IMG/VR virus record: IMGVR_UViG_3300018080_000031
Location: 1 to 51,418 of that record
Length of the DNA stretch: 51,418 bases
Source of the DNA: a virus
Lineage: Duplodnaviria; Caudoviricetes
Strand: one strand, 5' to 3'
The notes under the pieces were generated by a model. That model saw only the letters and a program-made list of their open reading frames with translations. It was not told the origin of the DNA and ran no database searches. Shown here piece by piece: positions 307 through 50,806 of this stretch (the stretch's first letter is position 1; each line of letters starts with the position of its first letter). The position numbers and the translations under genes were made by a program.

Positions 307-331
307 AGATCGTTTAATTATTGAACGGTCT
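307..331. repeat. 25-bp quasi-palindrome copy 1
   Basis: AGATCGTTTAATTATTGAACGGTCT. Confidence 0.9.
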
Positions 332-356
332 ATGGTTAAATGTACGTAATTTTATG

Positions 357-385
357 TTGACAACACTACGTAGATCAATTATTAT
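357..385 (+). promoter_or_regulatory. sigma70-type promoter
   Basis: TTGACA-17 nt-TATTAT. Confidence 0.7.
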
Positions 386-475
386 GGTTATTATGGTTAT
401 TATGGTTGATATTTCTATTAGGCTATTACATATATCTCTAAAAAAAAAATTATAAACATATATGTATTAGCCTAA
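380..475. repeat. Three tandem TATTATGGT repeats plus an 18-bp inverted repeat (418-435 / 458-475) around an A-tract
   Basis: Read directly from the sequence. Confidence 0.8.
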
Positions 476-543
476 CAGCCTTAAGCACCTTAAGAGCCAT
501 ATCAGCCTATTGAATTGAACATTTGAAGTGAGGAGGATTTAGT

Positions 544-765
544 ATGGGACATAAGTTTAAAGAGTGGAGTGTTGAAGATGTGATGGAGTACTTTGATGAA
601 TGGTTGGAGGGAGATGAAAATATGGCAGAAGAGCTTATGTGTAGAGTGGAGGACATGATCGGCCGTGGCAACTATAACCATTTAATGAGAGGATTCAGAG
701 ACTATTTGAAGGAAGTAGTAGGTATCAAAGGTATTCCATTTGCTACTTATAGGAGGGTCAGGTAA
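544..765 (+). CDS. Hypothetical protein
   Basis: GAGGAGG RBS; stop overlaps next start. Confidence 0.8.
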   Translation: MGHKFKEWSVEDVMEYFDEWLEGDENMAEELMCRVEDMIGRGNYNHLMRGFRDYLKEVVGIKGIPFATYRRVR

Positions 766-1526
766 TGGCTAAGAATTATGGATATAAGAGAAGAGATCCT
801 TATAAAGAAGATAGTACAAAAGGAGGAGCTTTGCTCAATCCTAAGACGTACAAAGGTGATGTGTTGGTTCAGTTGTGGATAGATAGTAGAATATTAGCCA
901 CGTTGAGCAACTGGTTGGACAATGGAGGTATGGTGACTAGGTTTATGAGTGATGTGGTGAGGACCACGTTGGAACAGGTAGTTGAGCATTTGAAGGAACA
1001 AGGTGAAGTTGAAATGGTTGAGCTTTGTAGAGATGCTAGGGATTTGTTGAAGAGGAAGTATAGAGTAGATTTAAATCCAGGTGGGAAAGGTGGAAGGAAT
1101 AAGCTGCACAATCTCACACTTGATGAGAGAAGGAAGAGAAATAGAGAAGTGGACGTAAGACAGAGCAGTTATACTGATGAGCAACTGAATAGAGCCATGG
1201 AGAAGTATGATGTAGAGAAGAGAATTGAAGATGCTAAGAGAAGAGCTGAAGAAGTTAGGAAGAAGTGGGAAGTAGATGAAAATGGTGTAGTTCAGAATAC
1301 AGGTAGACCATATGATGTAGATCCTAATACAGTTAATATAGAAGAAATGAAGGTGGAGAAGAAAAAAGAAGACAAATCTTCAATTGTGGAAGTTAGTGTT
1401 AAGAAAGAGAAAGAGAAAAGAGAGAGTGGTGTGCCTAAGCAGAAGACAGAAGAGGAGATTGAAGATCATATTGATAGGATAGCTAAGAAAGATAAAGAAT
1501 ATGAAGAGAAGTTGAAGAGGATGTGA
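765..1526 (+). CDS. Hypothetical protein, possible N-terminal ribbon-helix-helix-like DNA-binding region and charged C-terminus
   Basis: 253-aa ORF; VQLWIDSRILATL...MSDVVRTTLEQ pattern; function is inference. Confidence 0.7.
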   Translation: MAKNYGYKRRDPYKEDSTKGGALLNPKTYKGDVLVQLWIDSRILATLSNWLDNGGMVTRFMSDVVRTTLEQVVEHLKEQGEVEMVELCRDARDLLKRKYRVDLNPGGKGGRNKLHNLTLDERRKRNREVDVRQSSYTDEQLNRAMEKYDVEKRIEDAKRRAEEVRKKWEVDENGVVQNTGRPYDVDPNTVNIEEMKVEKKKEDKSSIVEVSVKKEKEKRESGVPKQKTEEEIEDHIDRIAKKDKEYEEKLKRM

Positions 1527-1529
1527 ATT

Positions 1530-1554
1530 AGATTGTTTAATTATTAAACGATCT
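1530..1554. repeat. 25-bp quasi-palindrome copy 2
   Basis: AGATTGTTTAATTATTAAACGATCT. Confidence 0.92.
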
Positions 1555-1600
1555 AACCGCCCGTGACACTTTTGGCCAAAACTGTAAATGAAAATAACAC

Positions 1601-1629
1601 TTGACAAGGGATTATTTTTATGATATAAT
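1601..1629 (+). promoter_or_regulatory. Consensus sigma70 promoter with extended -10
   Basis: TTGACA-17 nt-TATAAT with TGn. Confidence 0.9.
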
Positions 1630-1685
1630 AAGGGCGTGAAAATAAAGAATGAAATAAAGATCGTTTGAAAGGAGGTGAGTGATAG

Positions 1686-1856
1686 ATGTTGATGGCAATC
1701 TTAGACATTCGTGAAGATTGTGTGTTGGGTACTTTTAACAAATATGCTTACAATAAGTGTAGGCATATAGTTGAAGGTGAACCTACGTTGGAAGTTAGAG
1801 ATAACAAGATACAGGTAATGTACTATGATAAGCAAGAAGAAGTTGTACAAAGGTGA
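1686..1856 (+). CDS. Small hypothetical protein (56 aa, absent from ORF track)
   Basis: GGAGGTG RBS; MLMAILDIREDCVLG...VVQR*; first gene after the promoter. Confidence 0.6.
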   Translation: MLMAILDIREDCVLGTFNKYAYNKCRHIVEGEPTLEVRDNKIQVMYYDKQEEVVQR

Positions 1857-2073
1857 GTTTAATTACTTTGGTGAGACTTATAAACTGTTTACGCAGGCCG
1901 AGTCAGAGGTATTTGCATTCTACAATTTCATCAATCAGTTGAGGAAGAAACTAAAGGTGTCAAAGAATAGGTTGTTTTATTACTTTGATGGAAGTAGGGA
2001 TAACTATTATATTAGAGAGGAGGTGAAAAAAGATGAAAGCCAAGACCGCACGAAGATTCTTGCGAAGGAATAG
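1825..2073 (+). CDS. Hypothetical protein
   Basis: ORF in the early gene cluster. Confidence 0.65.
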   Translation: MISKKKLYKGEFNYFGETYKLFTQAESEVFAFYNFINQLRKKLKVSKNRLFYYFDGSRDNYYIREEVKKDESQDRTKILAKE

Positions 2074-2941: not shown

Positions 2942-2970
2942 TTGACAACGAACTGATCTTCCATTATAAT
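2942..2970 (+). promoter_or_regulatory. Consensus sigma70 promoter
   Basis: TTGACA-17 nt-TATAAT. Confidence 0.9.
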
Positions 2971-3565: not shown

Positions 3566-3590
3566 AGATCGTTTAATAATTAAACAAACT
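3566..3590. repeat. 25-bp quasi-palindrome copy 4
   Basis: AGATCGTTTAATAATTAAACAAACT. Confidence 0.88.
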
Positions 3591-4899: not shown

Positions 4900-5218
4900 A
4901 AAAGAAGAAGTAGAAGACAAAGGAAAAGAATGGTCATTCTATGTTGCGGGCGTGAAGTTCCATGATGCTTATAAGTGCATAGATAGAATGAAAGTCGGAG
5001 ACAAACTTCAAATGATAGCTGAGCCTGAGAACAAGTTCGACCCTAATGCAATTAGGCTTGAATTTGAAGATATTATGATCGGCTATGTCAAAGGGAAGAT
5101 CAGCGCAGAGGTCAGCGCCGCTACTATGTACGGTCGACTTGACTGCTCTATCATTGAACTAAATCTTGAAGCAAAACCTTGGGAATCAATCAAAGTAAAG
5201 ATAACGGAGGTAGTGTAA
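4889..5218 (+). CDS. HIRAN domain protein
   Basis: FYVAGVKFH...EPENKFDPNAI...IGYV signature. Confidence 0.85.
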   Translation: MYNEKEEVEDKGKEWSFYVAGVKFHDAYKCIDRMKVGDKLQMIAEPENKFDPNAIRLEFEDIMIGYVKGKISAEVSAATMYGRLDCSIIELNLEAKPWESIKVKITEVV

Positions 5219-5616
5219 TGAAATCTGTATTTTGTGCTTATTGTGGAAAACAACTATTTGTATATCGAAAGGCTGTACCATCAAAGATGAAAATCTACGA
5301 CTTCATCGAGCCTCATAATTGTCTTGGTGAAGAGGAAAGGCCTGAGGAGTTTAAATTTGAACTTGTTGAAGATGAGAAGAAGCCACCTATTGACCTTCCA
5401 CAAAGGTTTGGTAAACAAAAGATCGTTCAATTATTAAACGATCTTGAGCCAAAAACCACTAACCCATTGCAGATGAAAACTGGTGACAAACGAAACAAAG
5501 ATCATCTTCGCAAAGAACTATCATCAACTGCACCTAAGAGCTTAATAGATAACATACAAGGATTATCAAACTCAACACCAGAAGGAGATATAGACAAAGA
5601 ACCTGAGGAGGCCTAA
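5218..5616 (+). CDS. Hypothetical protein with putative Zn finger
   Basis: CAYC...HNC; contains repeat copy 5 in frame. Confidence 0.75.
   Translation: MKSVFCAYCGKQLFVYRKAVPSKMKIYDFIEPHNCLGEEERPEEFKFELVEDEKKPPIDLPQRFGKQKIVQLLNDLEPKTTNPLQMKTGDKRNKDHLRKELSSTAPKSLIDNIQGLSNSTPEGDIDKEPEEA
5420..5444. repeat. 25-bp quasi-palindrome copy 5 (inside CDS)
   Basis: AGATCGTTCAATTATTAAACGATCT, read as KIVQLLNDL. Confidence 0.9.
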
Positions 5617-7492: not shown

Positions 7493-7668
7493 TGAATGCA
7501 AAAGATTGGGAAAGCCTAAGAGGTAAACTTATTCATGTAAAGGTATTGAGTGTTGTTCCTCTTGCACCAAGAAGTCACATGATTCAACTTGAAATCGTAG
7601 AAACTGATGATTATGCAGATGTTGAAGTCTTCGAATATGACGAGGAGGGACAGAGAGATGCCTTATGA
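7492..7668 (+). CDS. Hypothetical protein
   Basis: GAGGAG RBS, TAATG coupling. Confidence 0.6.
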   Translation: MNAKDWESLRGKLIHVKVLSVVPLAPRSHMIQLEIVETDDYADVEVFEYDEEGQRDAL

Positions 7669-8500
7669 TCCTATGAAAGAACTAAAAAGAGTAACAGACT
7701 ATTACAACAAAGACCCCTTACAAAAGCGCTTCAGTGCAATAGTTACTGGAGAAACTAATGCAGGTAAGACTTATTTATTAAGAAGCGCAAGGTTTCCTAT
7801 CCACATAGATTCATTCGATCCTGGAGGAACAAAGTGCTTAGGTGACTTAATAAGATGTGAAGAAAACCCTAACGGCCAAATCATAGCTGACACGACCTTC
7901 GAGAACGAAGATCCTTTCAATCCATCTGCTTATGCTGAGTGGCAAAAGGTAACTAACTTAAGATTGGAAACAGGCTACTTCAATCTCTTCGGAACCTATT
8001 GCTTAGATGGCTTAACAACCTTTGGCAAAGCAGTAATGAACTTTCAACTTGCATCGAAAGGCCGTGAAGGTGAAGTTCCTCAAATGCGTAAGGACTTCAA
8101 TCCACAAAAGAACTTCATCGAAAATTACATACGAAAACTAATGAACCTATCCTGCGATTTCATCTTGACTGGCCACTTGAAAGAAATCGAGGAATTGCTA
8201 GCTATCGATTCTAGCTCAGGAATAAAACGAAAGGAGGTGAAATATCGTCTTTATGTAACTGGCCAAGCAGTAATAACAATTCCACTTTTATTCGATGAAC
8301 TTTACACTATAATCGGAAAGGGCAATCCGCCCAAGCGAGAGATGCTTATCGACTCTCTCGGTAAATATATAGCTAGGTCAAGACTAAAAAGAAATGGCAA
8401 ACTGGATGCGGTCGAAGAGCCTAATATTAGAAAGTTATTGAAGAAAATTGGCCTAAAATGGGAAGATAAACCAAGGCTTGAAACAAACAAGACCGTTTAA
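7658..8500 (+). CDS. AAA_24 / Sak4-like P-loop ATPase (ssDNA annealing recombinase)
   Basis: Walker A GETNAGKT, Walker B CLDGLT, ILTGH; context with exonuclease and SSB. Confidence 0.78.
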   Translation: MPYDPMKELKRVTDYYNKDPLQKRFSAIVTGETNAGKTYLLRSARFPIHIDSFDPGGTKCLGDLIRCEENPNGQIIADTTFENEDPFNPSAYAEWQKVTNLRLETGYFNLFGTYCLDGLTTFGKAVMNFQLASKGREGEVPQMRKDFNPQKNFIENYIRKLMNLSCDFILTGHLKEIEELLAIDSSSGIKRKEVKYRLYVTGQAVITIPLLFDELYTIIGKGNPPKREMLIDSLGKYIARSRLKRNGKLDAVEEPNIRKLLKKIGLKWEDKPRLETNKTV

Positions 8501-8514
8501 TTATTAAACAATCT
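8490..8514. repeat. 25-bp quasi-palindrome copy 6 (overlaps stop codon)
   Basis: AGACCGTTTAATTATTAAACAATCT. Confidence 0.9.
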
Positions 8515-9422: not shown

Positions 9423-9519
9423 TCTCGGCGACTTCATCTGAAGTCTGGGGCATGGGAGCTGGTAATTACTTGTGATTGTCTATTGATTTAGATATTGGAG
9501 CCAGGAGCCAGTGCCGAGA
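9423..9519. other. Multi-stem structured intergenic element (candidate ncRNA)
   Basis: TCTCGGC/GCCGAGA closing stem enclosing GACTTC/GAAGTC, TAATTAC/GTGATTG and TCTA/TAGA hairpins. Confidence 0.4.
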
Positions 9520-9541
9520 TCGTTTAATAATTAAACAATCT
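9517..9541. repeat. 25-bp quasi-palindrome copy 7
   Basis: AGATCGTTTAATAATTAAACAATCT. Confidence 0.92.
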
Positions 9542-9556: not shown

Positions 9557-9808
9557 ATGACCAACGAAGAATATCGTCCAAAGTTTTCTTTCGAGATCAG
9601 TGAAGAGCTAAAACAACGAGCTAATCGCACACTTGCTGTCTACGGCTTGCGTAAAAGTATCTTCACACCCATTCTTGAAGATGTCTTAGACCTAATCGAG
9701 AAGCACGGCCAGATGTTTGTCGGCGCTATTCTTGATCAAGCTATTAAACCGCACGAAGTGATACCAACTATTGCAAAAGCCGAGAGGAAAGTCAATGGCA
9801 AATCTTGA
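9557..9808 (+). CDS. Putative ribbon-helix-helix DNA-binding protein
   Basis: RPKFSFEISEELKQRA strand-helix pattern; GAGG RBS. Confidence 0.55.
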   Translation: MTNEEYRPKFSFEISEELKQRANRTLAVYGLRKSIFTPILEDVLDLIEKHGQMFVGAILDQAIKPHEVIPTIAKAERKVNGKS

Positions 9809-10174: not shown

Positions 10175-11488
10175 ATGAACAACATAGAAGTTGGCAAGGT
10201 AGCTATGATTAACTTAGCTGACATAGAAGTTGGCGAACGAACTAGGCAGGAAATGGGAGACATTGAAGGGCTTGAAGATTCACTTAAGGAAAGTGGATTG
10301 ATCAGCCCTTTAGCAGTCAAAGCATCTGACAATGGCAAGTACTTGCTCTTAGCAGGCGAACGGAGATACATTGTTCTGCGCAAAAACAAAGTTGAAACAA
10401 TCCCTGCTCGCATCTATCCACCTGACATATCTGAGATTGAGATAAAGGTAATTGAGAAGTCCGAAAACTTTTATCGTAAAGATATGGAATACTATGAATA
10501 CGATGCTTTGGTTCTTGAAATACATAAGCTTCAACAATCTATCTACGGTGTCAAGGCGCCAGGGCCTGGTCACTTGGGTCATTCAGTTGAAGACACCGGC
10601 AAGATGATAGGTAAGACAAAGGGACACGTATCATCTGCAATCAAACGAGCTGAAGCACGTGAGGCTTTTCCTGAACTCTTCGACCGTTGCAAGACACAGA
10701 AAGATGCAAGTAACCTAATGCAGAAGATGGACGAGATGGTTGTGAAGGAAGCTTTGGCTAAGAAAATAGAATTAAACAAAGCTAGCAACACAGTCCAACA
10801 GCTGTCCAACTCATTTATCGTCGGAGACTTCTTTGAAAAAGTTAGGGAAATTCCAGATAGTATCATGCACTTGGTTGAAATTGACCCTCCGTATGCTATC
10901 AACTTGCAAGCAGCAAAGAAATCTGAAGGCGAATCACATTACATGAAAGAAAATTACAACGAAGTAGACACACGAGACTATGAATCCTTCATGACTCAGA
11001 CATTTGCTGAGTGCTACCGAGTAATGTCCGATCACTCATGGTTACTATGTTGGTTTGGACCTGAGCCGTGGTTCAATGATATTTACCTAGCATTGCGCTC
11101 AGCTGGGTTTAACACAACTCGTATGTGTGGCATTTGGTCAAAGCCTTCAGGTCAATCTAAACGCCCCGAGATGCATCTAGCTAACTCATATGAAATGTTC
11201 TTCTACGCATGGAAAGGTAGGCCTGCACTCAACCAACCTGGTAGGCGCAACATCTTCGATTTCTCTCCAGTCCCACCGCAACAGAAGACGCATCCAACTG
11301 AACGACCAATCGAGTTGATGAAAGAAATCTACAACACCTTCGCCTTCCCAGGATCTCGTGTGTTAATACCTTTCCTCGGCTCAGGTAATGGCATCTTAGC
11401 TGCGGACGACTTAGGTATGTCAGCAGTTGGTTTCGAACTATCCAAAGCATATAAGGATAGTTTCTTGGTTAAGATATGTAATAAATAG
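10175..11488 (+). CDS. ParB N-terminal/HTH domain fused to a beta-class N6A/N4C DNA methyltransferase
   Basis: GLISPLAV, LLAGERRY, EN motif, HTH-like SVEDTGKMIGKTKGHVSSAI; DPPY, HPTERP, PFLGSG; AAGGAG RBS at ATG 10175. Confidence 0.9.
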   Translation: MNNIEVGKVAMINLADIEVGERTRQEMGDIEGLEDSLKESGLISPLAVKASDNGKYLLLAGERRYIVLRKNKVETIPARIYPPDISEIEIKVIEKSENFYRKDMEYYEYDALVLEIHKLQQSIYGVKAPGPGHLGHSVEDTGKMIGKTKGHVSSAIKRAEAREAFPELFDRCKTQKDASNLMQKMDEMVVKEALAKKIELNKASNTVQQLSNSFIVGDFFEKVREIPDSIMHLVEIDPPYAINLQAAKKSEGESHYMKENYNEVDTRDYESFMTQTFAECYRVMSDHSWLLCWFGPEPWFNDIYLALRSAGFNTTRMCGIWSKPSGQSKRPEMHLANSYEMFFYAWKGRPALNQPGRRNIFDFSPVPPQQKTHPTERPIELMKEIYNTFAFPGSRVLIPFLGSGNGILAADDLGMSAVGFELSKAYKDSFLVKICNK

Positions 11489-11511
11489 ACCGTTTAATTA
11501 TTAAACGATCT
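11487..11511. repeat. 25-bp quasi-palindrome copy 8
   Basis: AGACCGTTTAATTATTAAACGATCT. Confidence 0.92.
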
Positions 11512-15410: not shown

Positions 15411-15424
15411 TTATTAAACAATCT
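15400..15424. repeat. 25-bp quasi-palindrome copy 9, at the convergence of the two arms
   Basis: AGACCGTTTAATTATTAAACAATCT, overlapping both stop codons. Confidence 0.92.
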
Positions 15425-31316: not shown

Positions 31317-31341
31317 AGATTGTTTAATTATTAAACGGTCT
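31317..31341. repeat. 25-bp quasi-palindrome copy 14
   Basis: AGATTGTTTAATTATTAAACGGTCT. Confidence 0.9.
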
Positions 31342-31809: not shown

Positions 31810-32083
31810 TCTTTTGCTCCTCCAATATTTGTAAGAAAATGTCAGGTAAAGACAATAGATAATCAACTGTCTTTATTCTTCCATTTAAGTCGCCTAAATG
31901 TGTTAGTACAGATGCAGAGCTTGGATTAGTTTCAGCGATGTCTTCTACCATGGTTCTAGTTTCTATTTCAAATCCTTTCTTCCAAGCACCTAATTCACGT
32001 TTAATGTCTTTCCATATGAAAGATTTTTTAAATTCAAGTATCTGATCCTTTGTAGCTCTAACTAATACTTTTTTATCTTCCAT
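31784..32083 (-). CDS. Small protein downstream of portal (Bbp19-like position)
   Basis: FKKSFIWK...LNGRI...LLSLP; synteny. Confidence 0.65.
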   Translation of the reverse strand: MEDKKVLVRATKDQILEFKKSFIWKDIKRELGAWKKGFEIETRTMVEDIAETNPSSASVLTHLGDLNGRIKTVDYLLSLPDIFLQILEEQKNDNRRDET

Positions 32084-34035: not shown

Positions 34036-34055
34036 TTTATAACCTTCTCCATAAG

Positions 34056-36605: not shown

Positions 36606-36607
36606 AT

Positions 36608-37165: not shown

Positions 37166-37166
37166 A

Positions 37167-37191
37167 AGTTCGTTTAATTATTGAACGATCT
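37167..37191. repeat. 25-bp quasi-palindrome copy 15
   Basis: AGTTCGTTTAATTATTGAACGATCT, overlapping KIVQ-stop. Confidence 0.87.
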
Positions 37192-38827: not shown

Positions 38828-38834
38828 TTTTCCT

Positions 38835-39236
38835 CTATTTATCAAATTCAGATGAAATTTGAATCTTTGCAGGAGTCCCGTTAGCTTCGCTTATGTATCT
38901 AAATGACCTTATCCAATCACCGTTAGTTATTCTTAAACTATAGGTTTTATACAAGATATGGCCAAGACCTACCGTCGGCAAAGATTCTTGGACAGGATCG
39001 ACTCCGCCTACTGTCCATCTAATGTGTGCATCTTCACAGGTAATGTAAACAGCAGCTGCTTTGTTAGCCCCTGTTACGGCTATTACATTAGCAGGAAGGC
39101 TTTGTGCAGCGTCAGTTGAGTAAGCGTATTGAGTAGCAGTGAACACAGACCCTTGTGTAGTCATTACTTTGTCGGTAGCAAGTGACAATGTAGGAATTGT
39201 GAGTAATATGAGAGTTATTATTAGTTTTCTTAACAT
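38835..39236 (-). CDS. Signal-peptide hypothetical protein
   Basis: MLRKLIITLILLTIPTLSLA; GGAGG RBS. Confidence 0.75.
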   Translation of the reverse strand: MLRKLIITLILLTIPTLSLATDKVMTTQGSVFTATQYAYSTDAAQSLPANVIAVTGANKAAAVYITCEDAHIRWTVGGVDPVQESLPTVGLGHILYKTYSLRITNGDWIRSFRYISEANGTPAKIQISSEFDK

Positions 39237-39251
39237 CTTCTCCTCCAATAA

Positions 39252-39276
39252 AGTTCGTTTAATAATTAAACGATCT
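39252..39276. repeat. 25-bp quasi-palindrome copy 16
   Basis: AGTTCGTTTAATAATTAAACGATCT. Confidence 0.88.
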
Positions 39277-39278: not shown

Positions 39279-39557
39279 TTAACATAATGGATTGTAGACC
39301 TTCATCTCTGCCCATTTGCCATGAAGTCTTACATCCCCAGCGAATACAACATAAGCTTGGAGTCTCCAAGTTCCTTTTTGATCTAAAGTATCTGTGTTAG
39401 TGTCGTAAGACATGACTGTGCTAAGAACTGTATCAGGAGTCCAGTAGCCAGTTGTCTTGTCAGGCTTTTCGTACTTTATTCTCGCTTCTGTGTAATCAGT
39501 TAAGTCGATACTTGTACTGAGTGTTATAGTTACACTATCACCTACGAAAGTTTCCAT
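39279..39557 (-). CDS. Small beta-sandwich virion adaptor-like protein (BppU-N-like)
   Basis: IDLT...KPD..GYW...LDQKGTWRLQAYV. Confidence 0.6.
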   Translation of the reverse strand: METFVGDSVTITLSTSIDLTDYTEARIKYEKPDKTTGYWTPDTVLSTVMSYDTNTDTLDQKGTWRLQAYVVFAGDVRLHGKWAEMKVYNPLC

Positions 39558-44237: not shown

Positions 44238-44262
44238 AGATCGTTTAATAATTAAACGGTCT
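44238..44262. repeat. 25-bp quasi-palindrome copy 17
   Basis: AGATCGTTTAATAATTAAACGGTCT. Confidence 0.92.
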
Positions 44263-44621
44263 CATTTTGATTTCAGTTCCTCAAGAGACTTGAGGACTTC
44301 GCTATTTACTTTACGTTGTTCGTGCTTGAATTCTTTTAAGTCTTCCTTGATAGTCTCAAGAGACTGTGTTATTAGTTTTGTGTTAGTTTTGCAGTCAGCT
44401 AGTTTCTCACGGTGCTTTTCGACCTTTTGCTCTATTCTCTTTATCTCCTCGGCCTTTGCAACTTGACGTGAGTCGTAAGCGCCATAGACAAGCATTGCTA
44501 TGATTCCAAGTGCTGTTACGATAACTGCAACAGTTGTTCCTAAATAACCTTTTGAAACTTTAGTGTTTAAGCATTTGATAAGCTCTAATTTACATTTAGG
44601 ATCAGGACATTCATCTATCAT
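44262..44621 (-). CDS. Single-TM coiled-coil membrane protein (possible lysis function)
   Basis: Hydrophobic TVAVIVTALGIIAMLVYG followed by coiled coil. Confidence 0.65.
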   Translation of the reverse strand: MIDECPDPKCKLELIKCLNTKVSKGYLGTTVAVIVTALGIIAMLVYGAYDSRQVAKAEEIKRIEQKVEKHREKLADCKTNTKLITQSLETIKEDLKEFKHEQRKVNSEVLKSLEELKSK

Positions 44622-46150
44622 GCATATCTCCAGTTTTCAAGTGTAGGTTCGTAGTCAAGTTCTTTGAATTCAGCTTCAATGTCAGCAGGGTCTTCTTTTG
44701 GACTGAAGTAGCGTTCACCGAGTTCTAACATCTCAATGATGTAAGCTAAGCAGTCCATTAAGTCCCAGAGACGAGAACGAGGAAACATTAAGAGTTGTTG
44801 TTCAAGCTTTTTAACAGTCGCACATGCAGCATTATGGTAGATGTAGCCTTGTCGATAATAAGGAACTAGTTCCTTCACACGCAGTTCTTTCTTCATCCCT
44901 CCACGAGCTTTTAGCCAGATGAGTTCGAAGAATTTGCCGGTTTTAAACATCTGGTTTTTAATTGGCTGCTTGATGAATTCGTTGAGGGAAGTTTCCTCGA
45001 TGCCAAGAACTTTGGCATTTAATCTAATTCCCATCCCGAATAAGGCATCATAAATCTCGTCAGGATACATCTTTTCGGAAATTGCATCTCGGACGTAAAG
45101 TCGAGCGCTGTTCAAGTCTATGCCCACGCCTACTATGGCTGATTCAGCTGAGTGAATCTTGACTGTCTTAGCAGGGTCAAGGATTACTACAGTTTCTACA
45201 TTTTGATCAGATTGCACATCAGGTTCTGACTTCTTTATATCAAACTCGCTGACTGAATTTTCTATTGGTTTATTGTAATATCTAAAATAACCTTGTTGGA
45301 AAGCAGAGTCTTTAGTTGAAATTGGAAGGTTTCGTAGTTCGCGGAAAAAGACGTCGGTCTGTCCAGATGCCTGATGTTCTTCCCATTCCTTCATTATTTC
45401 TTCATCAGACATGAAGATTGGCGCTGTTGAATGAAAGTCGTCGTCGCAAGCTTCTAGGCGGACAGATTTCCATTCTTCAGATTCGAGCAACTTTTGTAAC
45501 ACAGAGTCTTCGTGCTTCAAGGTGTCAATGTAGACGATTTTCCAATTTCTGTGAAGGCGAGGGACTGCTTTGATTACGTCTGCGTAGAGCCACTCGTACC
45601 AAGCTTTTCTTATCTCGTCGTTGCGTATCTTTTCAGGGTCTTCAAGGTCGTCTATTACTATTAAACCAGGTCGATCATTCTTGAATAAAACACCACGAAC
45701 TTGCTGACCTGCTCCACGTGGCCAGACAAGTGTGTCATAAGCAACCCATGCTTTTTTGCTAAACACTTCATCAAATTCATTATTACCTACACTTCGTGTT
45801 CTGAAGTCGCCGAAGAAGTGTTTGATCATTCTGTTGGTTACAAGTTCTCGGCGCAGATTTTCAGTTTGAAGTGAAGCTGCATCGTGAGATTTGTTAATGT
45901 AGCAAATAAATCCTGTGTGACGAAATAAGATGTAACGAGCCATTAAAGCAAGGGCGACGATAGAAGTCTTACCCCAACCTCGAGGTGCAGCAATAGCTAC
46001 TTTATTATCAGGACCATCGATTAGGTCAAAGATCTTCCCATGAATGTTCTTGGCGAAAGGTGCGTAGAAACGTTCAGGGAAGAAGGTTTTAGCCATTACT
46101 TCCGTGTCGATGGAGCTAAGAGATAATATTTGTTCTGTGGTTTTGTCCAT
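44618..46150 (-). CDS. terL: Terminase large subunit
   Basis: Walker A APRGWGKTS, Walker B IVIDDLE, nuclease LDPA, GIEE, DLMDCLAY. Confidence 0.93.
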   Translation of the reverse strand: MDKTTEQILSLSSIDTEVMAKTFFPERFYAPFAKNIHGKIFDLIDGPDNKVAIAAPRGWGKTSIVALALMARYILFRHTGFICYINKSHDAASLQTENLRRELVTNRMIKHFFGDFRTRSVGNNEFDEVFSKKAWVAYDTLVWPRGAGQQVRGVLFKNDRPGLIVIDDLEDPEKIRNDEIRKAWYEWLYADVIKAVPRLHRNWKIVYIDTLKHEDSVLQKLLESEEWKSVRLEACDDDFHSTAPIFMSDEEIMKEWEEHQASGQTDVFFRELRNLPISTKDSAFQQGYFRYYNKPIENSVSEFDIKKSEPDVQSDQNVETVVILDPAKTVKIHSAESAIVGVGIDLNSARLYVRDAISEKMYPDEIYDALFGMGIRLNAKVLGIEETSLNEFIKQPIKNQMFKTGKFFELIWLKARGGMKKELRVKELVPYYRQGYIYHNAACATVKKLEQQLLMFPRSRLWDLMDCLAYIIEMLELGERYFSPKEDPADIEAEFKELDYEPTLENWRYA

Positions 46151-46175
46151 AGATTGTTTAATAATTAAACGGTCT
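46151..46175. repeat. 25-bp quasi-palindrome copy 18, occupying the entire terL upstream gap
   Basis: AGATTGTTTAATAATTAAACGGTCT directly abutting the terL ATG. Confidence 0.92.
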
Positions 46176-48613
46176 TAAGACCCATCTACCTCCACAACAG
46201 TTATTGTTATTAGAATCTCATTAGATCCATCTGGAAGAAGCCCAGCTGCAGTTTGGTATACAGAACCGAACTTGTTAAACGCAACAACGTGTTCTTGCCA
46301 GTACATTACAGAAGTATCACCAGTCCAATCTGTTGAATCTATTGTAACAGTATCTGCAGTACCTGATGCTACACCTCCATAGGCAACCTTAGCCGTAACA
46401 TCCCCAGCAGTGATAGCAGCATGCGCTCTAGCTGATATAGCCCAAACATACACATCCTTTCCATTAACGTACCAAGGCTGCTCTGTTTCAGTGTCTCTTA
46501 AAGCATTGGTATCGACAGCTACATTTGCAGCCACGTCTTTTATATAAAAGGAATATTCATGCTTTGGCCAGCTCGTTTCACCTGTTATATGATCTGCATT
46601 GCTGAAGTAGTAATTGGCAGTTACTATGTCTCTGAAGTAATTTTGACCTAGATAAAGTCCATCAACGTCATGAGATGCATCGACTCCACTGCAGGAAATT
46701 CCGTAGTTTCCATCGGACATGAAATTTCCTTTTATTATCAAGTCGTCTACGAAAGATCCTACACCAGACCCATTAACACCAGTTGAAATACAGTGGAAAG
46801 CAGCGGCAGTGTCTCTTATTTGATTATTAAAGATTGATACTTCTGTGACATTAATAGCATATATCCCATGAGATGTAGTTGTATCGATTATATTACCGTC
46901 TATGGTAATCTGGGACGAGTGAGTAACATCGGTTGAGTCACCATCAACTCTTATACCGTAGCCTACAACATCATAAATGTTATTTCCTTTTATTACTACA
47001 TTCTCTACATTAGCTGTAATATCGACTGCAGCACTAGCACCAGTTCCTGGATCATCATCTGTGTCATTTATAACGTTACCTATTATGTTAATGTTTCTTT
47101 GTCTGTTCTGCAAAAAGGTAGAATACACCGCTATCGGAGATCCATCACAACCTTCTATTACATTACCTACTATGTTTCCAAAACTAGAGCCAGATGAAGC
47201 GTAGATAGCGTGCCGACCTACACCATTAAATATATTATTGGTTAGATCAAATCTCGTATTATCAGTGTCGCATAAGATACCATAACCTAATGTATTGTCG
47301 TCTTTGTAAGGGATGTCGAAGAAGAAATTGTTTGTGGATATAAAGTCGTCAGAGTCATGGAATTGAAGGGCTATTGTAGATTTGGAGAAGGAACAGTCTT
47401 GAACTATTGAATTTGTACTATCTTCAAAGTAGACAAGGCGTTCCTCGGTAGTGTCGTCGTCCGAGCCAATGAAAGATATGTCATTAATCTCTACATTGCT
47501 TTCAGTATCTACATGGACTGCATTGATTCCAGCCGTTGTAATCTGTATTACCGATACGTCTCTTCCAAGACCTCTAAGGGCCATGTTTGAGTCTAAGAGA
47601 ATTTCGGCGTCTACGTTGTAAGTTTTAGCCCCAAGCTGCACAATACCAGAGGTTCCAACTGCATCAACAGCATTGTTTATTTGAACATCATCAGCCGTTC
47701 CATCTATACCCCACCACTCAGGGAGAGCTACTTTATGATATGTAAGATTAGCTACACCAGTTCCAGCTAGATTAAATATCTGATATTCCCCTGCAATGAC
47801 CTCTGATTGAAGAGTTAAAACATGGCCTGTTTCAATAGTTATAAGGCAGCCTTTTTTAACTTCCAATGCTTGATAAGCATCGAGAGTTGTGTCAAATTCT
47901 ACTGTCTCTGGTTGATCAACGTAGATGGTGAGATTTACATCTTCATCTGCGGTAAAATTTACGGCTGAACGAATACGGTTGAACCAAGATGTGTGAACTA
48001 TCGAACCCGCAAGAAAATCAAAGTCATTTGCGCCAGAGAAGATTTGGTAAGTTCCAGCTTCAATCTTTTTTAGGCCATCTAATGTAAACCCTCCATCTGT
48101 TATGATGAAAGGAGATTCCCAACGAAGAGTTACATTATCGCCTACAGTAGCATCTGCAGTGAGTGTTTCAGCACGTGAGATAACCATTGTTAAGGTATCA
48201 TCACTTGTAACATCGAGAGCTTCGTCAAGGTCGTCGAACCAAGCTGAGCGGACTGTAGCACCAACAGGAAAATCAATGTCTCCAGCACCAGAGAAGATTT
48301 CCCGATCACCTGCGTCGATGTCATAGGTTTGTAATGTTAGCTGAGTTGTCACAGCAAGGGAACCGTTAGACATAAATTTTAATCTAACATTAATAGGTAT
48401 TGTTAAAGTACCTACTGCTTCCTCACCAGTGATGATTAAGATTCGCTCATTAGCTCCAATAGCAGTTATAGCATCGTCGATAGTTGTATATGCACGAGTG
48501 TCGACCCACTTACCACCGATACCTGTGACAATTACTAATGGGAAGTATTCGGCAAAAGCAACTACAGCAACGACGAAGATTGCTAAAAGAGATGATAGGA
48601 TAATCTTTTTCAT
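46175..48613 (-). CDS. Signal-peptide tailspike-like beta-helix protein (pectate-lyase-like fold)
   Basis: MKKIILSSLLAIFVVAVVAFA; three N-terminal repeats (IFSG...WF); PEWWG..DD..INNA; GN-I beta-helix repeats. Confidence 0.82.
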   Translation of the reverse strand: MKKIILSSLLAIFVVAVVAFAEYFPLVIVTGIGGKWVDTRAYTTIDDAITAIGANERILIITGEEAVGTLTIPINVRLKFMSNGSLAVTTQLTLQTYDIDAGDREIFSGAGDIDFPVGATVRSAWFDDLDEALDVTSDDTLTMVISRAETLTADATVGDNVTLRWESPFIITDGGFTLDGLKKIEAGTYQIFSGANDFDFLAGSIVHTSWFNRIRSAVNFTADEDVNLTIYVDQPETVEFDTTLDAYQALEVKKGCLITIETGHVLTLQSEVIAGEYQIFNLAGTGVANLTYHKVALPEWWGIDGTADDVQINNAVDAVGTSGIVQLGAKTYNVDAEILLDSNMALRGLGRDVSVIQITTAGINAVHVDTESNVEINDISFIGSDDDTTEERLVYFEDSTNSIVQDCSFSKSTIALQFHDSDDFISTNNFFFDIPYKDDNTLGYGILCDTDNTRFDLTNNIFNGVGRHAIYASSGSSFGNIVGNVIEGCDGSPIAVYSTFLQNRQRNINIIGNVINDTDDDPGTGASAAVDITANVENVVIKGNNIYDVVGYGIRVDGDSTDVTHSSQITIDGNIIDTTTSHGIYAINVTEVSIFNNQIRDTAAAFHCISTGVNGSGVGSFVDDLIIKGNFMSDGNYGISCSGVDASHDVDGLYLGQNYFRDIVTANYYFSNADHITGETSWPKHEYSFYIKDVAANVAVDTNALRDTETEQPWYVNGKDVYVWAISARAHAAITAGDVTAKVAYGGVASGTADTVTIDSTDWTGDTSVMYWQEHVVAFNKFGSVYQTAAGLLPDGSNEILITITVVEVDGS

Positions 48614-48622: not shown

Positions 48623-48647
48623 AGCTCGTTTAATGATTGAACAGTCT
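48623..48647. repeat. 25-bp quasi-palindrome copy 19 (degenerate)
   Basis: AGCTCGTTTAATGATTGAACAGTCT. Confidence 0.7.
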
Positions 48648-48862
48648 TATATTCCATCTGAAGGAGTTCCAGGTGGAAGAGGAGATTGTTTGAGATACAT
48701 AGCAGCTGCAACGATTGCACTTACAAGGGCAACCATTCCAAGTTTGCCTGCGCTGTCCTGCATGTTAAAAGCAATTGGGTCAACTATCATTACTGTAATC
48801 GAGTTCGCTGCCCCACCTATGATCGCGCTGATTAGGCCTTTGGCCCACTTATGCCATTTCAT
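48647..48862 (-). CDS. Putative holin
   Basis: 71 aa with two hydrophobic segments; YLKQSPLP. Confidence 0.65.
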   Translation of the reverse strand: MKWHKWAKGLISAIIGGAANSITVMIVDPIAFNMQDSAGKLGMVALVSAIVAAAMYLKQSPLPPGTPSDGI

Positions 48863-49020: not shown

Positions 49021-49021
49021 C

Positions 49022-49396
49022 TTAGTTTTCCTCCTTTAAGATGATAGGTTTTAGGTATTCTAGTAAATCTGCAAGGCGTGCCGAGACATCTGCGGCGGAT
49101 TTGAGGTAAATGTCCTTGTTTTGGTCAGTCGCTAACATTTTATAATTAAGAAGTGCATTAACTGCTTCGTTATGAGTCACCATGTAGACGTTTCCGATCT
49201 TAATTGCTTCTGTTTTTTGCTCTTCGGACATAAGACCTTGTTTGTAAAGGTCTCCGGCGACGTTAAGTGTTGAGTCATAAGTTGCCTTGCTAACTGCTAA
49301 AGTGTCAAAAGACGACTTTATGAAGGAGTTAGCACAGGCAACTAAGGTAAATGTTAAAAAAAGGAGAAATGAAATGTTTCTTATTTTGCTTCTCAT
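49022..49396 (-). CDS. Lipoprotein
   Basis: Hydrophobic signal with LVAC lipobox. Confidence 0.75.
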   Translation of the reverse strand: MRSKIRNISFLLFLTFTLVACANSFIKSSFDTLAVSKATYDSTLNVAGDLYKQGLMSEEQKTEAIKIGNVYMVTHNEAVNALLNYKMLATDQNKDIYLKSAADVSARLADLLEYLKPIILKEEN

Positions 49397-49407
49397 GATT
49401 ACCTCCC

Positions 49408-49432
49408 AGATTGTTTAATAATTAAACGGTCT
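49408..49432. repeat. 25-bp quasi-palindrome copy 20
   Basis: AGATTGTTTAATAATTAAACGGTCT. Confidence 0.92.
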
Positions 49433-49710
49433 CATTTCGGATCATACTCACAATGAATATGATTACCTTCATCAACAACATCCCATTGAGGACTTAGTAC
49501 TTGTTTTATTAAGTGAATTTCAATCCCAGGTTGTATATCAAATGCTAAACCTACATAGTGGAGAGACCCAGGACTGTGATTTCCGTCTCGTATAGACGTA
49601 ACATAGAGGTCATGCCCGTGCCCTTCGTACGCATGAGCAACTCGTCCAAGCCCTTTCTGTGCCACTGACTTCAAGCATCCACAAACTCCTTGTTTAATCC
49701 ACAGTGTCAT
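49432..49710 (-). CDS. Peptidase M15-like (Hedgehog/DD-peptidase fold) putative endolysin
   Basis: VTS..D..H..SLHYVGLAFD...HIHCEYD (HxxxxxxD plus HxH). Confidence 0.75.
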   Translation of the reverse strand: MTLWIKQGVCGCLKSVAQKGLGRVAHAYEGHGHDLYVTSIRDGNHSPGSLHYVGLAFDIQPGIEIHLIKQVLSPQWDVVDEGNHIHCEYDPK

Positions 49711-49757
49711 TTGTCATCTCATCATTTGGCAAGCCGCCGAGGATTCGCCGGTTGGAC

Positions 49758-50294
49758 TTATTTAGACTCACCTTCAACCTCAACAATCATCCCAGATGCT
49801 TTCGCAGCAGCAATTCCTCTTTTCTTAAACTCTTCAATTTCTGCAAGAGTGGCAGTGGTGTTAAAAGATTGAGATTGAACTCTTGTCGGGACACGCAAGC
49901 CAGACAATTCAAGTACGACGGTGTCAGCAGCTTTCTTCTGTAAATCTTTCGAGGTGTTCCCGTCTTCGTTTTCGAACAAGTCATCGTAGACCTTAAGTGC
50001 TTTATCTGTTAAGACTCGGATTTTTTCACTAACGACGCTTGCTTCTTCGTCTCTTGATTTGCGCAGTTTTGCAAGTTTTCTCTCGCCCAATTCAGAATTT
50101 AATGTATTAGAGACCGTCTGAGGTGAGATATTCAAGATTTCGGCAATCTCAGTTTGCTTAAACCCTCTGACGGCCAAATTCACTATTTCATGATTCCTCT
50201 GCCACAAAGACTTAACATTATAAGTCTTGCGATCCTCTGATCGGCGCAGGTCAGGTTCCCTCATCTCGAAACCGTATAGAGAATTTCTATTCAT
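49758..50294 (-). CDS. HTH protein, putative terminase small subunit
   Basis: GFKQTEIAEILNISPQTVSNTL HTH; near the start of the late arm. Confidence 0.65.
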   Translation of the reverse strand: MNRNSLYGFEMREPDLRRSEDRKTYNVKSLWQRNHEIVNLAVRGFKQTEIAEILNISPQTVSNTLNSELGERKLAKLRKSRDEEASVVSEKIRVLTDKALKVYDDLFENEDGNTSKDLQKKAADTVVLELSGLRVPTRVQSQSFNTTATLAEIEEFKKRGIAAAKASGMIVEVEGESK

Positions 50295-50295
50295 T

Positions 50296-50649
50296 TTAGA
50301 GGACCTGCAAAGCGTTGGGATCGCCAGGAGGCGGCGAGACAACTGGCAAAACATTTGTAGGAGGGACGAAGACCTCATGCGTGTAAGTTACTGTATTACT
50401 AGGTCCACTCTCACCTGCTTCATTATAAGCTGTTGCGTGGAAAGTGTACTCAACACCTGGAGTTAGGTTAAGCAAGTCCATATTGCAGGACCTGACATCT
50501 CCAACGACGTTGTAATTGTAGTTATTAGTTCCGTCTGTGAAATAGATAATAAACCCATCTGCTCCATCATGATCCCATTGTAGCTCGGCCGCGACCACTG
50601 GTAAGGGCAGAATCAACAAAATACCTAAAATAATACCTAAAATCTTCAT
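50296..50649 (-). CDS. Signal-peptide fibronectin type III domain protein
   Basis: MKILGIILGILLILPLPVVAA; LQWD...LTPGVEYTFHATAYNEAGESGPSN. Confidence 0.85.
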   Translation of the reverse strand: MKILGIILGILLILPLPVVAAELQWDHDGADGFIIYFTDGTNNYNYNVVGDVRSCNMDLLNLTPGVEYTFHATAYNEAGESGPSNTVTYTHEVFVPPTNVLPVVSPPPGDPNALQVL

Positions 50650-50694
50650 AACTAACCTCCTAAGCAGTTATTACTTTAAACTTATCCTGCATCC

Positions 50695-50723
50695 ATTATA
50701 CGTGTAGAACAATGTTTTGTCAA
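50695..50723 (-). promoter_or_regulatory. Consensus sigma70 promoter heading the structural arm
   Basis: TTGACA-17 nt-TATAAT on the - strand. Confidence 0.88.
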
Positions 50724-50781
50724 CATAATTTTGTGTAATTTTTCGTTTCTACAAATTATACAGAAATTTTCATTTAAAACC

Positions 50782-50806
50782 AGATCGTTTAATTATTAAA
50801 CAATCT
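50782..50806. repeat. 25-bp quasi-palindrome copy 21, between the divergent promoters
   Basis: AGATCGTTTAATTATTAAACAATCT. Confidence 0.92.

Follow-up and report, generated by a model that had tools for sequence, protein, structure and literature searches.

Dispersed 25-bp palindromes in a podovirus genome as candidate docking sites for a phage ParB-methyltransferase

Introduction

We asked what a 25-bp palindrome could be doing at 21 places in one phage genome, and which protein might read it. The window (the whole stretch of DNA analysed here, 51,418 nucleotides) is the entire virus record with its direct terminal repeats (1–123 = 51296–51418), so that the wording of a preliminary description of this DNA, that the palindrome tiles the whole genome, is literal. 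The genome is complete and podovirus-like (51,295 bp plus the 123-bp terminal repeat), and its source is an uncultured, lytic-type podovirus with two convergent arms. The copies had been likened to the stoperators of mycobacteriophage L5 and to parS arrays; a literature search found no published description of the array.

Results

Distribution of the palindrome. A search with the consensus of the preliminary description, allowing up to 3 mismatches, recovered all 21 copies at the starts it had listed and no further match; none of 100 dinucleotide-preserving shuffles, run as the control, gave a match (i.e., a chance expectation of 0). Eleven copies have 0 mismatches, and the worst (48623) has 3. 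The site is built as 12-1-12, with an A/T-rich centre and outer clamp bases that contain G/C. The 21 sites in 51,295 bp have a mean spacing of 2,443 bp, a smallest gap of 785 bp and a largest gap of 5,850 bp (31317 to 37167), matching the earlier estimate of about one site per 2.4 kb across both arms and a largest gap of about 5.8 kb. Spacing was more even than chance in all five genomes tested (the window phage and relatives): the coefficient of variation (CV) of the gaps was 0.51–0.66 in 5/5, and the probability of a CV at or below that observed was 0.0016–0.030 for uniform placement and 0–0.0066 for random gene junctions.

Position relative to genes. Nine of the 21 copies overlap or contain the stop codon of a neighbouring ORF (2380, 8490, 11487, 15400, 37167, 44238, 46151, 48623, 49408) and four more (1530, 29492, 31317, 39252) have a stop 0–3 nt upstream, which bears out the earlier remark that copies sit mostly at or just after stops. 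A Shine-Dalgarno sequence (SD) and start codon follow within 21 nt at 12/21 sites, and two copies (46151, 37167) directly abut an ATG. From the left end, palindrome 307–331 (1 mismatch) follows both the ORF spanning the terminal repeat and its terminator-like hairpin (234–263); 1530–1554 (0 mismatches) comes 3 nt after the stop of ORF 765–1526; the perfect copy 2380–2404 overlaps the stop of ORF 2189–2380 and is followed by an SD and ATG; 3566–3590 is 21 nt upstream of ATG 3612; the TAA in the left palindrome arm of 8490–8514 is the stop of a Sak4-like gene (7607–8500), with an SD and ATG 8533 following; 9517–9541 is 15 nt upstream of ATG 9557 (a conserved 83-aa protein); and 11487–11511 overlaps the stop codon of a ParB-methyltransferase gene, with the DNA polymerase ATG 12 nt downstream. 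As first described, one copy (15400–15424) marks the exact convergence of the two genome arms, with the stop codons of the two converging genes overlapping it, and another (50782–50806) lies in the divergent control region between the divergent promoters. Elsewhere, 26787–26811 comes directly after the GC-rich hairpin that follows the major capsid gene; 29492–29516, 31317–31341 and 39252–39276 lie between ORFs (29519–30403 and 29026–29343, 31342–31866 and 30407–31300, and 39279–39557 and 38835–39248, respectively), as does the most degenerate copy, 48623–48647 (between 48647–48862 and 46175–48613); the centre of 37167–37191, 1 nt from ATG 37165, holds the stop of a beta-helix tailspike gene (37178–38845); 44238–44262 and 49408–49432 overlap the stops of ORFs 44262–44621 and 49432–49710; and 46151–46175 overlaps the stop of a tailspike gene (46175–48613) and, with no intervening SD, abuts the ATG of the large terminase (46150).

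Two copies are in frame within long or conserved genes: 5420–5444 (read as KIVQLLNDL) in a Cys-rich ORF (5218–5616), whose homologue in the relative G002 likewise carries its own palindrome in frame, and 19950–19974 (DRLKIKRS) in a linker of the gene for a 1995-aa virion protein. The 3' end of ORF 23486–23962 reads through 23499–23523, which is followed by the SD and ATG of ORF 22554–23483. T9 is changed to C at 5420, abolishing the TAA, and on the sense strand at 23499; these variants at arm position 9 (GTTCAA) are present because the ORFs read through the TAA.

A candidate reader. Our leading proposal, a tentative one to which we give a little less than an even chance, is that the palindromes are docking sites of the parS/NBS/OB kind for the phage's own ParB-methyltransferase (10175–11488, plus strand; 437 aa from ATG 10175). 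In this protein a GERR-bearing ParB N-terminal fold is followed by a helix-turn-helix (HTH; residues 137–164, 10583–10666, plus strand) and then by an N6/N4 DNA methylase domain, which stands where the C-terminal dimerisation domain of ParB usually sits. It matched ParB_N (4.3e-10) and N6_N4_Mtase (3.2e-21) in Pfam, and Noc, ParB and Spo0J by sequence in the PDB (7e-10 to 1e-6), and carries the motifs GERR and ENFYRKD. The AF2 model has helices at 138–145 and 149–164, and its best Foldseek matches were Noc-DNA, ParB and KorB (up to 230 aligned columns), at modest model quality (pLDDT 65, TM 0.3–0.46). The gene belongs to the core of the clade (7/7 genomes examined); ParA was not found in the phage genome.

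Related phages have their own versions of the palindrome at the same kinds of location. The versions are genome-specific and both arms are changed together: CGTTTAAT in the window phage and G002, AATTAAAT in G005, CCGTWWAAT in G003, ATATAAA in G004 and GTCCCAA in a Desulfofustis phage. The HTH appears to be the part of the ParB-methyltransferase that best follows these versions, on suggestive evidence: its columns ranked 1, 2, 3, 5, 6, 7, 9 and 12 of 300 (43 non-identical rows). When the covariation was re-run, 9 of the top 15 columns fell within residues 137–162, and the two top scores (8.8, 8.7) exceeded every column of the control proteins (primase, PolA, the 83-aa protein and an SSB-like protein; maximum 7.3), whereas primase had reached 8.8 and PolA 8.0 in the first control run; the permutation scores leave shared ancestry in. 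The turn motif T[DN]AS was present in 8/8 rows with ATTAAA-type palindromes and in 1/35 other rows, a pairing found at 3–4 places when the tree was built with the HTH columns left out; the independent contrasts, 2 on supported branches (4 on all), were all concordant (sign test p = 0.5). The HTH residues of the window phage (KTKGHVSS) and G002 (VSKATVSQ) differ despite nearly equal palindromes. Two distant relatives, Microcystis phage Mel-JY34 and Vibrio phage VS-ABTNL-3, have distant ParB-methylase-like genes (23% and 22% identity, respectively), and no repeated palindrome family was found in them when arms of 7–9 bp were searched. Because of the high control scores, the few independent contrasts and these two relatives, the covariation is not decisive, and the support for the ParB-methyltransferase as reader is suggestive. 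Named earlier for testing, this protein is the best candidate, its HTH columns showing the strongest covariation with the palindrome versions.

Two other proteins put forward as binders fell away. Neither the recognition helix of the 49758 HTH protein, which is homologous to small terminases, nor the 83-aa product of ATG 9557 tracks the version of the palindrome.

Promoters and other phage proteins. The palindromes might instead be duplex-DNA sites for another phage protein (a global regulator, transcription roadblock or boundary insulator), comparable to the phiC31 conserved inverted repeats or P1 C1 operators. We consider this unlikely, and yet the strongest of the alternatives: the evidence for duplex reading given below applies to it equally, most sites lie at gene boundaries just before an SD, many small early ORFs carry no annotation, and the covariation favouring the ParB-methyltransferase is statistically not decisive. 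Furthermore, of the five strongest matches to sigma-70-type promoters (357–385, 1601–1629, 2942–2970 and 50969–50996, plus strand; 50723–50695, minus strand), three have a palindrome 25–58 bp upstream of the −35: the −35 of the match at 357 is 25 bp downstream of palindrome 307, the match at 1601 is 46 bp downstream of 1530, and 50782 precedes the −35 of the perfect match 50723–50695 by 58 bp. However, none of the 21 sites overlaps any of these five matches; the earlier statement that no −35 or −10 is overlapped holds for them, and a few weak 9/12 matches, of a kind no more frequent than in shuffles, do overlap sites. The failure of the small-terminase HTH and the 83-aa protein to follow the palindrome also counts against a different reader, and the even spacing, together with the in-frame copies and the one at the convergence of the arms, suits a coverage function more than control of promoters.

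Duplex site or hairpin. The transcribed strand reads AGACCG...CAATCT at 8490, 29492, 31317, 46151 and 49408, as reported, and also at 15400, and the C-A rather than G-U mismatches there had been held to argue against a hairpin. We examined 234 oriented sites from the window phage and relatives (478 unpaired arm positions). The sense strand had 72 G-T, the other strand 131; on the sense strand C-A exceeded G-T (131 vs 72) as A-A exceeded T-T (129 vs 76), so the C-A excess is a strand-composition bias with no structural signal, and that argument lapses. Arm positions 3 and 5 were complementary in 56% and 52% of sites, and in G003 (20 sites found by the outer motif alone) the inner arms are A/T-rich and often non-complementary. 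Since neither strand prefers wobble pairs and the G003 inner arms often fail to pair, protein-read duplex DNA fits better: judged by its base pairing, the palindrome is most likely a duplex-DNA docking site rather than an RNA or DNA hairpin, and the earlier conclusion in favour of a duplex site for a dimeric protein survives on these other grounds.

The same counts make it improbable that the palindromes extrude as DNA hairpins or cruciforms (as ssDNA priming or loading signals, or as starts of recombination-dependent replication), for base composition rather than pairing accounts for the strand asymmetry of the large sample, roughly half of the sites lack pairing at arm positions 3 and 5, and the high-scoring columns of the primase-annotated protein are scattered, with no cluster. 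Such a role would suit the A/T-rich centre clamped by G/C-containing outer bases, the even spacing of about 2.4 kb, the encoded DUF3987-type P-loop protein (annotated primase), Sak4-like annealase and exonuclease, and the template strand of the window phage, which taken alone keeps more wobble pairs (21 vs 5).

Slot occupancy among relatives. The post-capsid slot (26787) is filled in roughly 43/76 related loci among the matches listed (counted by eye) and the slot at the ParB-methyltransferase stop in 21/51 non-identical related loci; the arm-convergence slot (15400) is also filled in G002, G003, G004 and G005. Varying occupancy might be expected of selfish or recombinogenic repeats (miniature mobile palindromes or gene-shuffling "linkers") with no further phage function, and in-frame copies do lie in variable linkers, a 125-aa insert in the giant gene of G002 is bounded by a palindrome and a decayed look-alike, an extra gene in L138 is inserted beside a palindrome, and indels between 17-bp repeats are reported for Cluster O mycobacteriophages (PMC4351075, in the text available). 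We nevertheless rate this as very improbable: spacing is far more even than a random choice of gene junctions would give (5/5 genomes), the L138 insertion has a palindrome on one side only, and Pfam and PHROGs showed no transposase (HUH or other), integrase or homing nuclease in the phage genome.

Least probable of all are intercistronic mRNA hairpins (processing in the style of T7 RNase III sites, stabilisation or partial termination), which would accord with 13/21 sites at or just after a stop, 12/21 just before an SD, the copy at 26787 after the capsid-gene terminator hairpin and terminator-like flags in a scan for 15400 and a few others, but sense-strand mismatches are mostly non-wobble (G-U 72/478, fewer than C-A), a T-run follows few of the copies and the terminator-like calls fall mostly on the antisense strand, in-frame copies in the 6-kb and Cys-rich genes would cut or stop their own mRNAs, and a purely structural signal has no need of near-identical sequence within one genome.

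Discussion

Of the analogies offered in the preliminary description, the evidence favours the parS array. ParB-parS, Noc-NBS and KorB-OB likewise pair palindromic sites in cis, many of them dispersed on the replicon, with a protein in which an HTH comes after a GERR-bearing ParB N-terminal fold. By eye, we judge the inner half-site of the phage (GTTTAAT) to resemble parS (GTTTCAC). The L5 analogy fails because the phage site is symmetric and neither a repressor nor an integrase was found in the phage genome, as had already been noticed. L5 stoperators are asymmetric, lie in one orientation to transcription and are read by the immunity repressor of a temperate phage; they share with this array the many copies of one short site, on both arms, at short intergenic positions.

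The parS and NBS sites are about 16 bp long, and the phage site, at 25 bp (12-1-12), departs from the 13–16 bp or so of parS, NBS and OB (the OB core is printed as 13 bp in PMC11790492). Further differences are the methylase domain in place of the dimerisation domain; the absence of ParA, KorA or another known partner; about 20 evenly spaced sites that span an entire phage genome; and the nature of the replicon, a lytic-type podovirus instead of a chromosome or plasmid. The greater length of the site, the missing C-terminal dimerisation domain and the lack of a ParA count against the ParB reading.

Dispersed palindromes are known from Cluster O mycobacteriophages, which have more than 30 genome-wide copies of a 17-bp palindrome (TGTTCGG-N3-CCGAACA) with a 3-bp A/T centre, mostly intergenic with some inside genes, as here, and absent from the host; the authors suggested binding of a dimeric protein and thought a transcriptional role unlikely (PMC4351075). 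Phage group, sequence and length are unrelated to ours, and the available text of that paper reports neither a reader protein nor a spacing analysis. The LUZ24-group phage tf is also a podovirus with two convergent arms, and its capsid gene is distantly related to that of the window phage; it has about 14 phage-specific localised nick sites (TACT/RTGMC), for which co-evolution of nick site and enzyme was proposed (PMC3517423). That motif is 9 bp, asymmetric and nicked in a single strand only; nicks in both strands of a palindrome would sever the genome.

If the palindromes are docking sites for the ParB-methyltransferase, two HTHs would read the two arms, and some 20 loading points, none more than about 6 kb from the next, would let the protein act on the flanking phage DNA. 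Spreading or sliding, with methylation of the phage genome, would be the most likely action; KorB, for comparison, loads at OB sites, slides and acts at a distance (PMC11790492). Alternatively, the protein might have a regulatory or organising role like that of KorB or Noc. Fusions of a ParB-CTPase fold to an N6_N4 methyltransferase, with the same domain architecture as the phage protein, are frequent in phages and enriched in prophage regions (PNAS 2025, PMC12704722); to what is available of that survey the present analysis adds a proposed target array and a possible recognition segment. A common, unexplained class of phage enzymes, the ParB-like DNA methyltransferases, would thereby gain a testable DNA target.

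Genome organization and placement of the palindromes

The window is a complete virus record with direct terminal repeats (1–123 repeated at 51296–51418), giving a unit genome of 51,295 bp once the 123-bp repeat is counted single; one ORF crosses the repeat, running from 51057 through it to 202. ORF listing with PHROGs and Pfam scans revealed two convergent arms. Replication genes occupy the plus arm (+ strand, from about 50.9 kb via the repeat to 15.4 kb), namely ligase, exonuclease, Sak4-like annealase, a ParB-methyltransferase (10175–11488, +), family-A DNA polymerase and a primase-annotated P-loop protein of the DUF3987 type; virion genes occupy the minus arm (– strand, from 50.65 kb to 15.4 kb) and include a 1995-aa SLT/LPD protein, the major capsid (26869–28164), portal, two beta-helix tailspikes and large terminase. 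The product called “DNA primase” by PHROGs (14196–15410) is a DUF3987-type protein with the Walker A motif GPSATGKGT, and no separate replicative helicase was recognised in the window. The ORF scans gave no match in the window to RNA polymerase, integrase, repressor or transposase families. Perfect sigma-70 consensus matches (TTGACA-17-TATAAT) were located at 1601–1629 (+), 2942–2970 (+) and 50723–50695 (–), and a near-perfect one (TTGACA-17-TATTAT) at 357–385 (+); one of the four drives the start of the 35-kb virion arm. At four-fold degenerate sites of all window genes the sense strand was T- and A-rich with C above G (A 0.32–0.34, C 0.13–0.18, G 0.09–0.11, T 0.40–0.45), while whole genes were instead purine-rich.

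A consensus search allowing up to 3 mismatches returned exactly the 21 palindromes listed in the preliminary description, and 0/100 shuffles matched. The placement it had reported, mostly at or just after stop codons, was borne out: nine sites overlap or contain the stop of the adjoining ORF, four more lie 0–3 nt past one, the two arms meet at one site, and another lies between the divergent promoters. About 30% of all gene junctions in the window are occupied. A Shine-Dalgarno sequence and start codon follow within 21 nt downstream at 12/21 sites, and two sites abut an ATG. The ATGs of large terminase (46150–46175 with its palindrome) and of ORF 36608–37165 (37165–37191 with its palindrome) come 0–1 nt after the palindrome without a Shine-Dalgarno sequence, which suggests termination-reinitiation coupling or misplaced starts.

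ORFs translate through three sites (5420, 19950 and 23499). Site 5420 is read in frame as KIVQLLNDL within a Cys-rich conserved protein, and the homologue in the complete related genome G002 has its own palindrome version at the same place, also in frame; the product of this ORF (5218–5616) is a conserved protein of 132 aa with a CxxC...HxC N-terminus and the palindrome in mid-protein. Site 19950 contributes the residues DRLKIKRS to a linker in the giant virion gene. Changes of T to C at arm position 9 (GTTCAA variants) are explained by the reading frame: they occur exactly where the frame would otherwise hit TAA. In G002 (L210) the giant virion protein has a 125-aa insertion (residues about 597–735) between the similar peptides KADRLSLDPILEKP and KADRLKIEPTEKP, the second of which is encoded by a palindrome copy; the linker that holds this insertion has a single copy in G003 and none in the window.

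Palindrome versions among related phages

The nearest named phage was Desulfofustis phage LS06-2018-MD01 (capsid identity 52%), with phages of the LUZ24/119X type far more distant, and a near-identity search of phage records found no close cultured relatives. Scanning IMG/VR with the capsid protein yielded 132 related stretches; the 80 retained (identity 74–85%) carried similar palindromes. A GC-rich hairpin, terminator-like and located in the window at 26812–26868, followed the capsid gene in every related locus printed (L121–L200). A count by eye put a 25-bp palindrome, followed directly by a Shine-Dalgarno sequence, in this post-capsid slot of roughly 43 among the 76 printed related loci; the remaining loci had the hairpin but no palindrome. 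Several relatives (e.g., L133, L138, L141, L165) had extra genes between the hairpin and the next conserved gene. Integron attC-like cassettes were considered and discarded, as the extra gene in L138/L140 has a palindrome on one side only and no integrase was found.

Five complete relatives were compared with the window. The palindrome version differed among genomes (AGWYCGTTTAAA... in G002, AGWCCGTWWAAT... in G003, AGATAYATAAA... in G004, AGWTRATTAAAT... in G005 and CTATGTCCCAAWTTGGGACATAG in the Desulfofustis phage), and versions among relatives included AATTAAAT-type and ATATAAA-type sites. There were 21 copies in the window and 16–22 in each of four relatives, and the arm-convergence slot was also occupied in G002–G005. 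The palindrome array is a clade-wide, genome-specific feature maintained by selection, whichever protein reads it. The start of the Desulfofustis palindrome (OP947158, L221), TACTATGTC, present in the copies at 7684, 15470, 29966 and 37109, equals 8/9 bases of the LUZ24-group nick-site form TACTATGAC described in a paper that reports 14 strand-specific nick sites in phage tf (PMC3517423); this likeness may be coincidental.

No repeated palindrome family with arms of 7–9 bp was found in Mel-JY34 or VS-ABTNL-3, but neither is a clean negative control since both have distant ParB-methylase-like genes (22–23% identity), a combination that itself weighs against the ParB-methyltransferase as reader of the palindromes. 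Kuura had neither a ParB-methylase-like match nor a palindrome family. A match to a host regulator box, which the preliminary description had named as a way for its view to fail, did not emerge: within the genome collection 62 stretches contained the 17-mer core, about as many as expected by chance and without host enrichment, and the AG...CT ends were present in only 1/62 (L256). Three core matches in one Thiotrichaceae MAG were set aside as belonging to a different repeat, GAGGCGTTTAATTATTAAACGCAAT, which lies beside a GC-rich hairpin on three contigs of that MAG (L249, L252, L278).

Candidate reader proteins

We tentatively favour the ParB-methyltransferase, a core protein of the clade, as reader of the palindromes, at somewhat less than even confidence, with the palindromes as its candidate docking sites. 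Pfam placed ParB_N (PF02195, E 4.3e-10, above cut-off) and an N6_N4 DNA methylase domain (PF01555, residues 232–429, E 3.2e-21) in this protein. LLAGERRY (GxRR, box II) was invariant in the alignments and ENF(Y/F)RKD was also present. Its PDB sequence matches were Noc, ParB and Spo0J (7e-10 to 1e-6), in alignments that are unreliable past residue 130. Pfam returned no HTH domain in the protein; the AF2 model (overall pLDDT 65) has predicted HTH helices at 138–145 and 149–164, with local pLDDT near 77–80. The best Foldseek matches were Noc-DNA, ParB and KorB (N-domain plus DNA-binding domain) over 186–230 aligned columns, with TM only 0.3–0.46.

Two other proteins were tried and rejected. The HTH protein at 49758–50378, which matches the annotated small terminase of the Desulfofustis phage, carries an identical recognition helix in the window and in G001 and a near-identical one in G005, genomes whose palindromes differ. 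The 83-aa protein at 9557–9808 (RHH-like by eye) was present in 7/7 genomes, and its N-terminal FSFEI segment, the presumptive strand, was unchanged across palindrome types; its single-sequence fold was poor (pLDDT 55, all-helical).

We examined whether any protein varies together with the palindrome version. A scan with the 83-aa protein provided 80 loci that also contained the neighbouring ParB-methyltransferase gene, from which 43 non-identical rows, each with two or more palindromes, were taken, and mutual information with the half-site consensus was scored by permutation. Columns of the ParB-methyltransferase HTH ranked 1, 2, 3, 5, 6, 7, 9 and 12 of 300 in these 43 rows, by permutation scores that ignore shared descent. 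On re-running, 9/15 top columns fell in residues 137–162, and the two top scores (8.8 and 8.7) were the turn residues T148 and K149; the maximum for four control proteins was 7.3, with high columns scattered, and in an earlier control run scores had reached 8.8 for primase and 8.0 for polymerase. The motif T[DN]AS in the turn accompanied ATTAAA-type palindromes in 8/8 rows and was found in only 1/35 other rows, a pairing seen at 3–4 positions in a tree from which the HTH columns were excluded. Independent contrasts numbered 2 on supported branches and 4 in all, every one concordant (sign test p = 0.5). The window and G002 have a common palindrome type and different HTH residues. Taken as alignment evidence, it is suggestive that the ParB-methyltransferase HTH best follows the sequence of the palindrome array; that another protein acts on duplex DNA at the palindromes is, in our estimate, unlikely.

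Immediately 3' of the ParB-methylase gene a palindrome was present in 21/51 loci versus 0/42 at the polymerase 3' end and 27/1,100 random windows, but this adds little, since the occupancy is near the general level of about 30% for window junctions.

Duplex DNA, hairpins and spacing

The sites could alternatively act as a DNA hairpin or cruciform in replication. The window alone showed more wobble pairs on the template strand (21 vs 5), and a template-strand hairpin of the N4-promoter type was considered; it was rejected when a larger sample of 234 non-redundant, oriented sites showed a compositional strand bias, no RNA polymerase having been found. In that sample sense-strand mismatches were C-A 131 vs G-T 72, A-A 129 vs T-T 76 and C-C 16 vs G-G 6, which represents A/C enrichment of the sense strand and not conservation of pairing. 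Arm pairs 3 and 5 were complementary in only 56% and 52% of the sites, respectively, the conserved parts being the outermost AG...CT and positions 7–11. With this strand bias and such unpaired arms, a DNA hairpin is quite improbable. The bias in strand composition was 1.7–1.8-fold only and the site is symmetric, so that the analogy to L5 stoperators drawn in the preliminary description was abandoned, there being also no repressor or integrase family match.

The gaps between palindromes were more even than chance in 5/5 genomes tested (coefficient of variation, CV, 0.51–0.66). The probability of a CV at or below that observed was 0.0072, 0.0016, 0.0026, 0.030 and 0.025 for uniform placement, and 0.0002, 0, 0, 0.004 and 0.0066 for random choice among predicted gene junctions. 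The largest gaps in the five genomes were 4.3–7.1 kb; in the window all gaps ranged from 785 bp (P = 0.0006) to 5,850 bp. Coverage this even, which in-frame copies sustain within long genes as well, speaks against selfish insertion at random and against a role tied purely to promoters. Palindromes of a selfish (REP/RAYT- or MITE-like) or recombination-linker kind are therefore very improbable, the more so as no transposase family was matched and spacing was more even than among random junctions in every genome tested.

Least probable of all is a hairpin at the RNA level, whether terminator or RNase III site: G-U made up just 72/478 unpaired positions on the sense strand, a sense-strand T-run followed few copies, and the 20 G003 sites gathered with only the outer motif (AGWCCG-N13-CGGWCT) had inner arms that were often non-complementary, with A/T-rich inner 13 bases and two adjacent inner mismatches in 8/20. 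Weak pairing, few T-runs and the in-frame copies together favour recognition as duplex DNA, in which the outer bases and a part of the inner ones would be read directly around an A/T-rich centre. The earlier inference of a double-stranded site thus stands, whereas the C-A mismatches on which it had been based reflect strand composition only. A search of public runs found no RNA run for 23000–32000, the sole match being a DNA run from a sediment metagenome, perhaps the one from which the window derives.

Discussion

If the ParB-methyltransferase is the reader, two HTHs would read the two palindrome arms, and the protein, once loaded at the sites, would act on neighbouring DNA. The same loading step could alternatively lead to long-range regulation as for KorB, or to organisation as for Noc. 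A more specific version is a nucleotide-gated ParB clamp that would load on phage DNA only, slide, and methylate the whole phage genome fast and selectively. Its sliding range would bridge the distances between about 20 parS-like loading sites, at most about 6 kb from one to the next. Host DNA would escape this self-targeted anti-restriction methylation, and the site would evolve together with the HTH as an address code specific to each lineage. We regard this clamp version as doubtful. At an observed/expected ratio of 0.77, an intermediate value for a 4-mer palindrome, GATC in the window showed no unusual depletion that would indicate GATC avoidance or a Dam link.

The array is proposed to work like the parS, NBS and OB arrays of ParB-family proteins; RK2 has 12 OB sites. 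Canonical ParB systems have a C-terminal dimerisation domain and ParA or KorA, whereas here that domain is absent with the methylase domain in its place, and no ParA-like or KorA-like partner was found among 59 ORFs (PHROGs) and 46 ORFs (Pfam). Our tentative reading is an array of ParB-type sites linked to a methyltransferase in a phage of lytic type; the system is not a canonical member of the ParB/Noc/KorB group. KorB is described as loading at OB sites, sliding and acting at a distance (PMC11790492). Fusions of N6_N4 methylases to the ParB-CTPase fold are frequent in phages and among their commonest ParB-like proteins in a 2025 survey, which in the sections available assigns them no DNA target or role (PMC12704722). 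Activation of phage thymine dioxygenases by ParB-like proteins, shown in a 2026 report (PMC13229309), is a precedent for ParB folds serving DNA modification. Literature searches, supplements excluded, returned no paper that ties a phage ParB-methylase to a dispersed site array.

The window and its more than 100 uncultured relatives give a concrete predicted target sequence for the ParB-methylase fusions and a candidate recognition segment (the HTH turn and first helix residues) with natural variants, and the spacing rule suggests spreading from loading sites. If true, the ParB loading principle, familiar from the partition of chromosomes and plasmids and from the silencing of plasmid genes, would also cover DNA modification in lytic phages, and dispersed phage palindromes that have been noted without explanation, such as the more than 30 17-bp palindromes that Cluster O mycobacteriophages are described as carrying (PMC4351075), would be accounted for.
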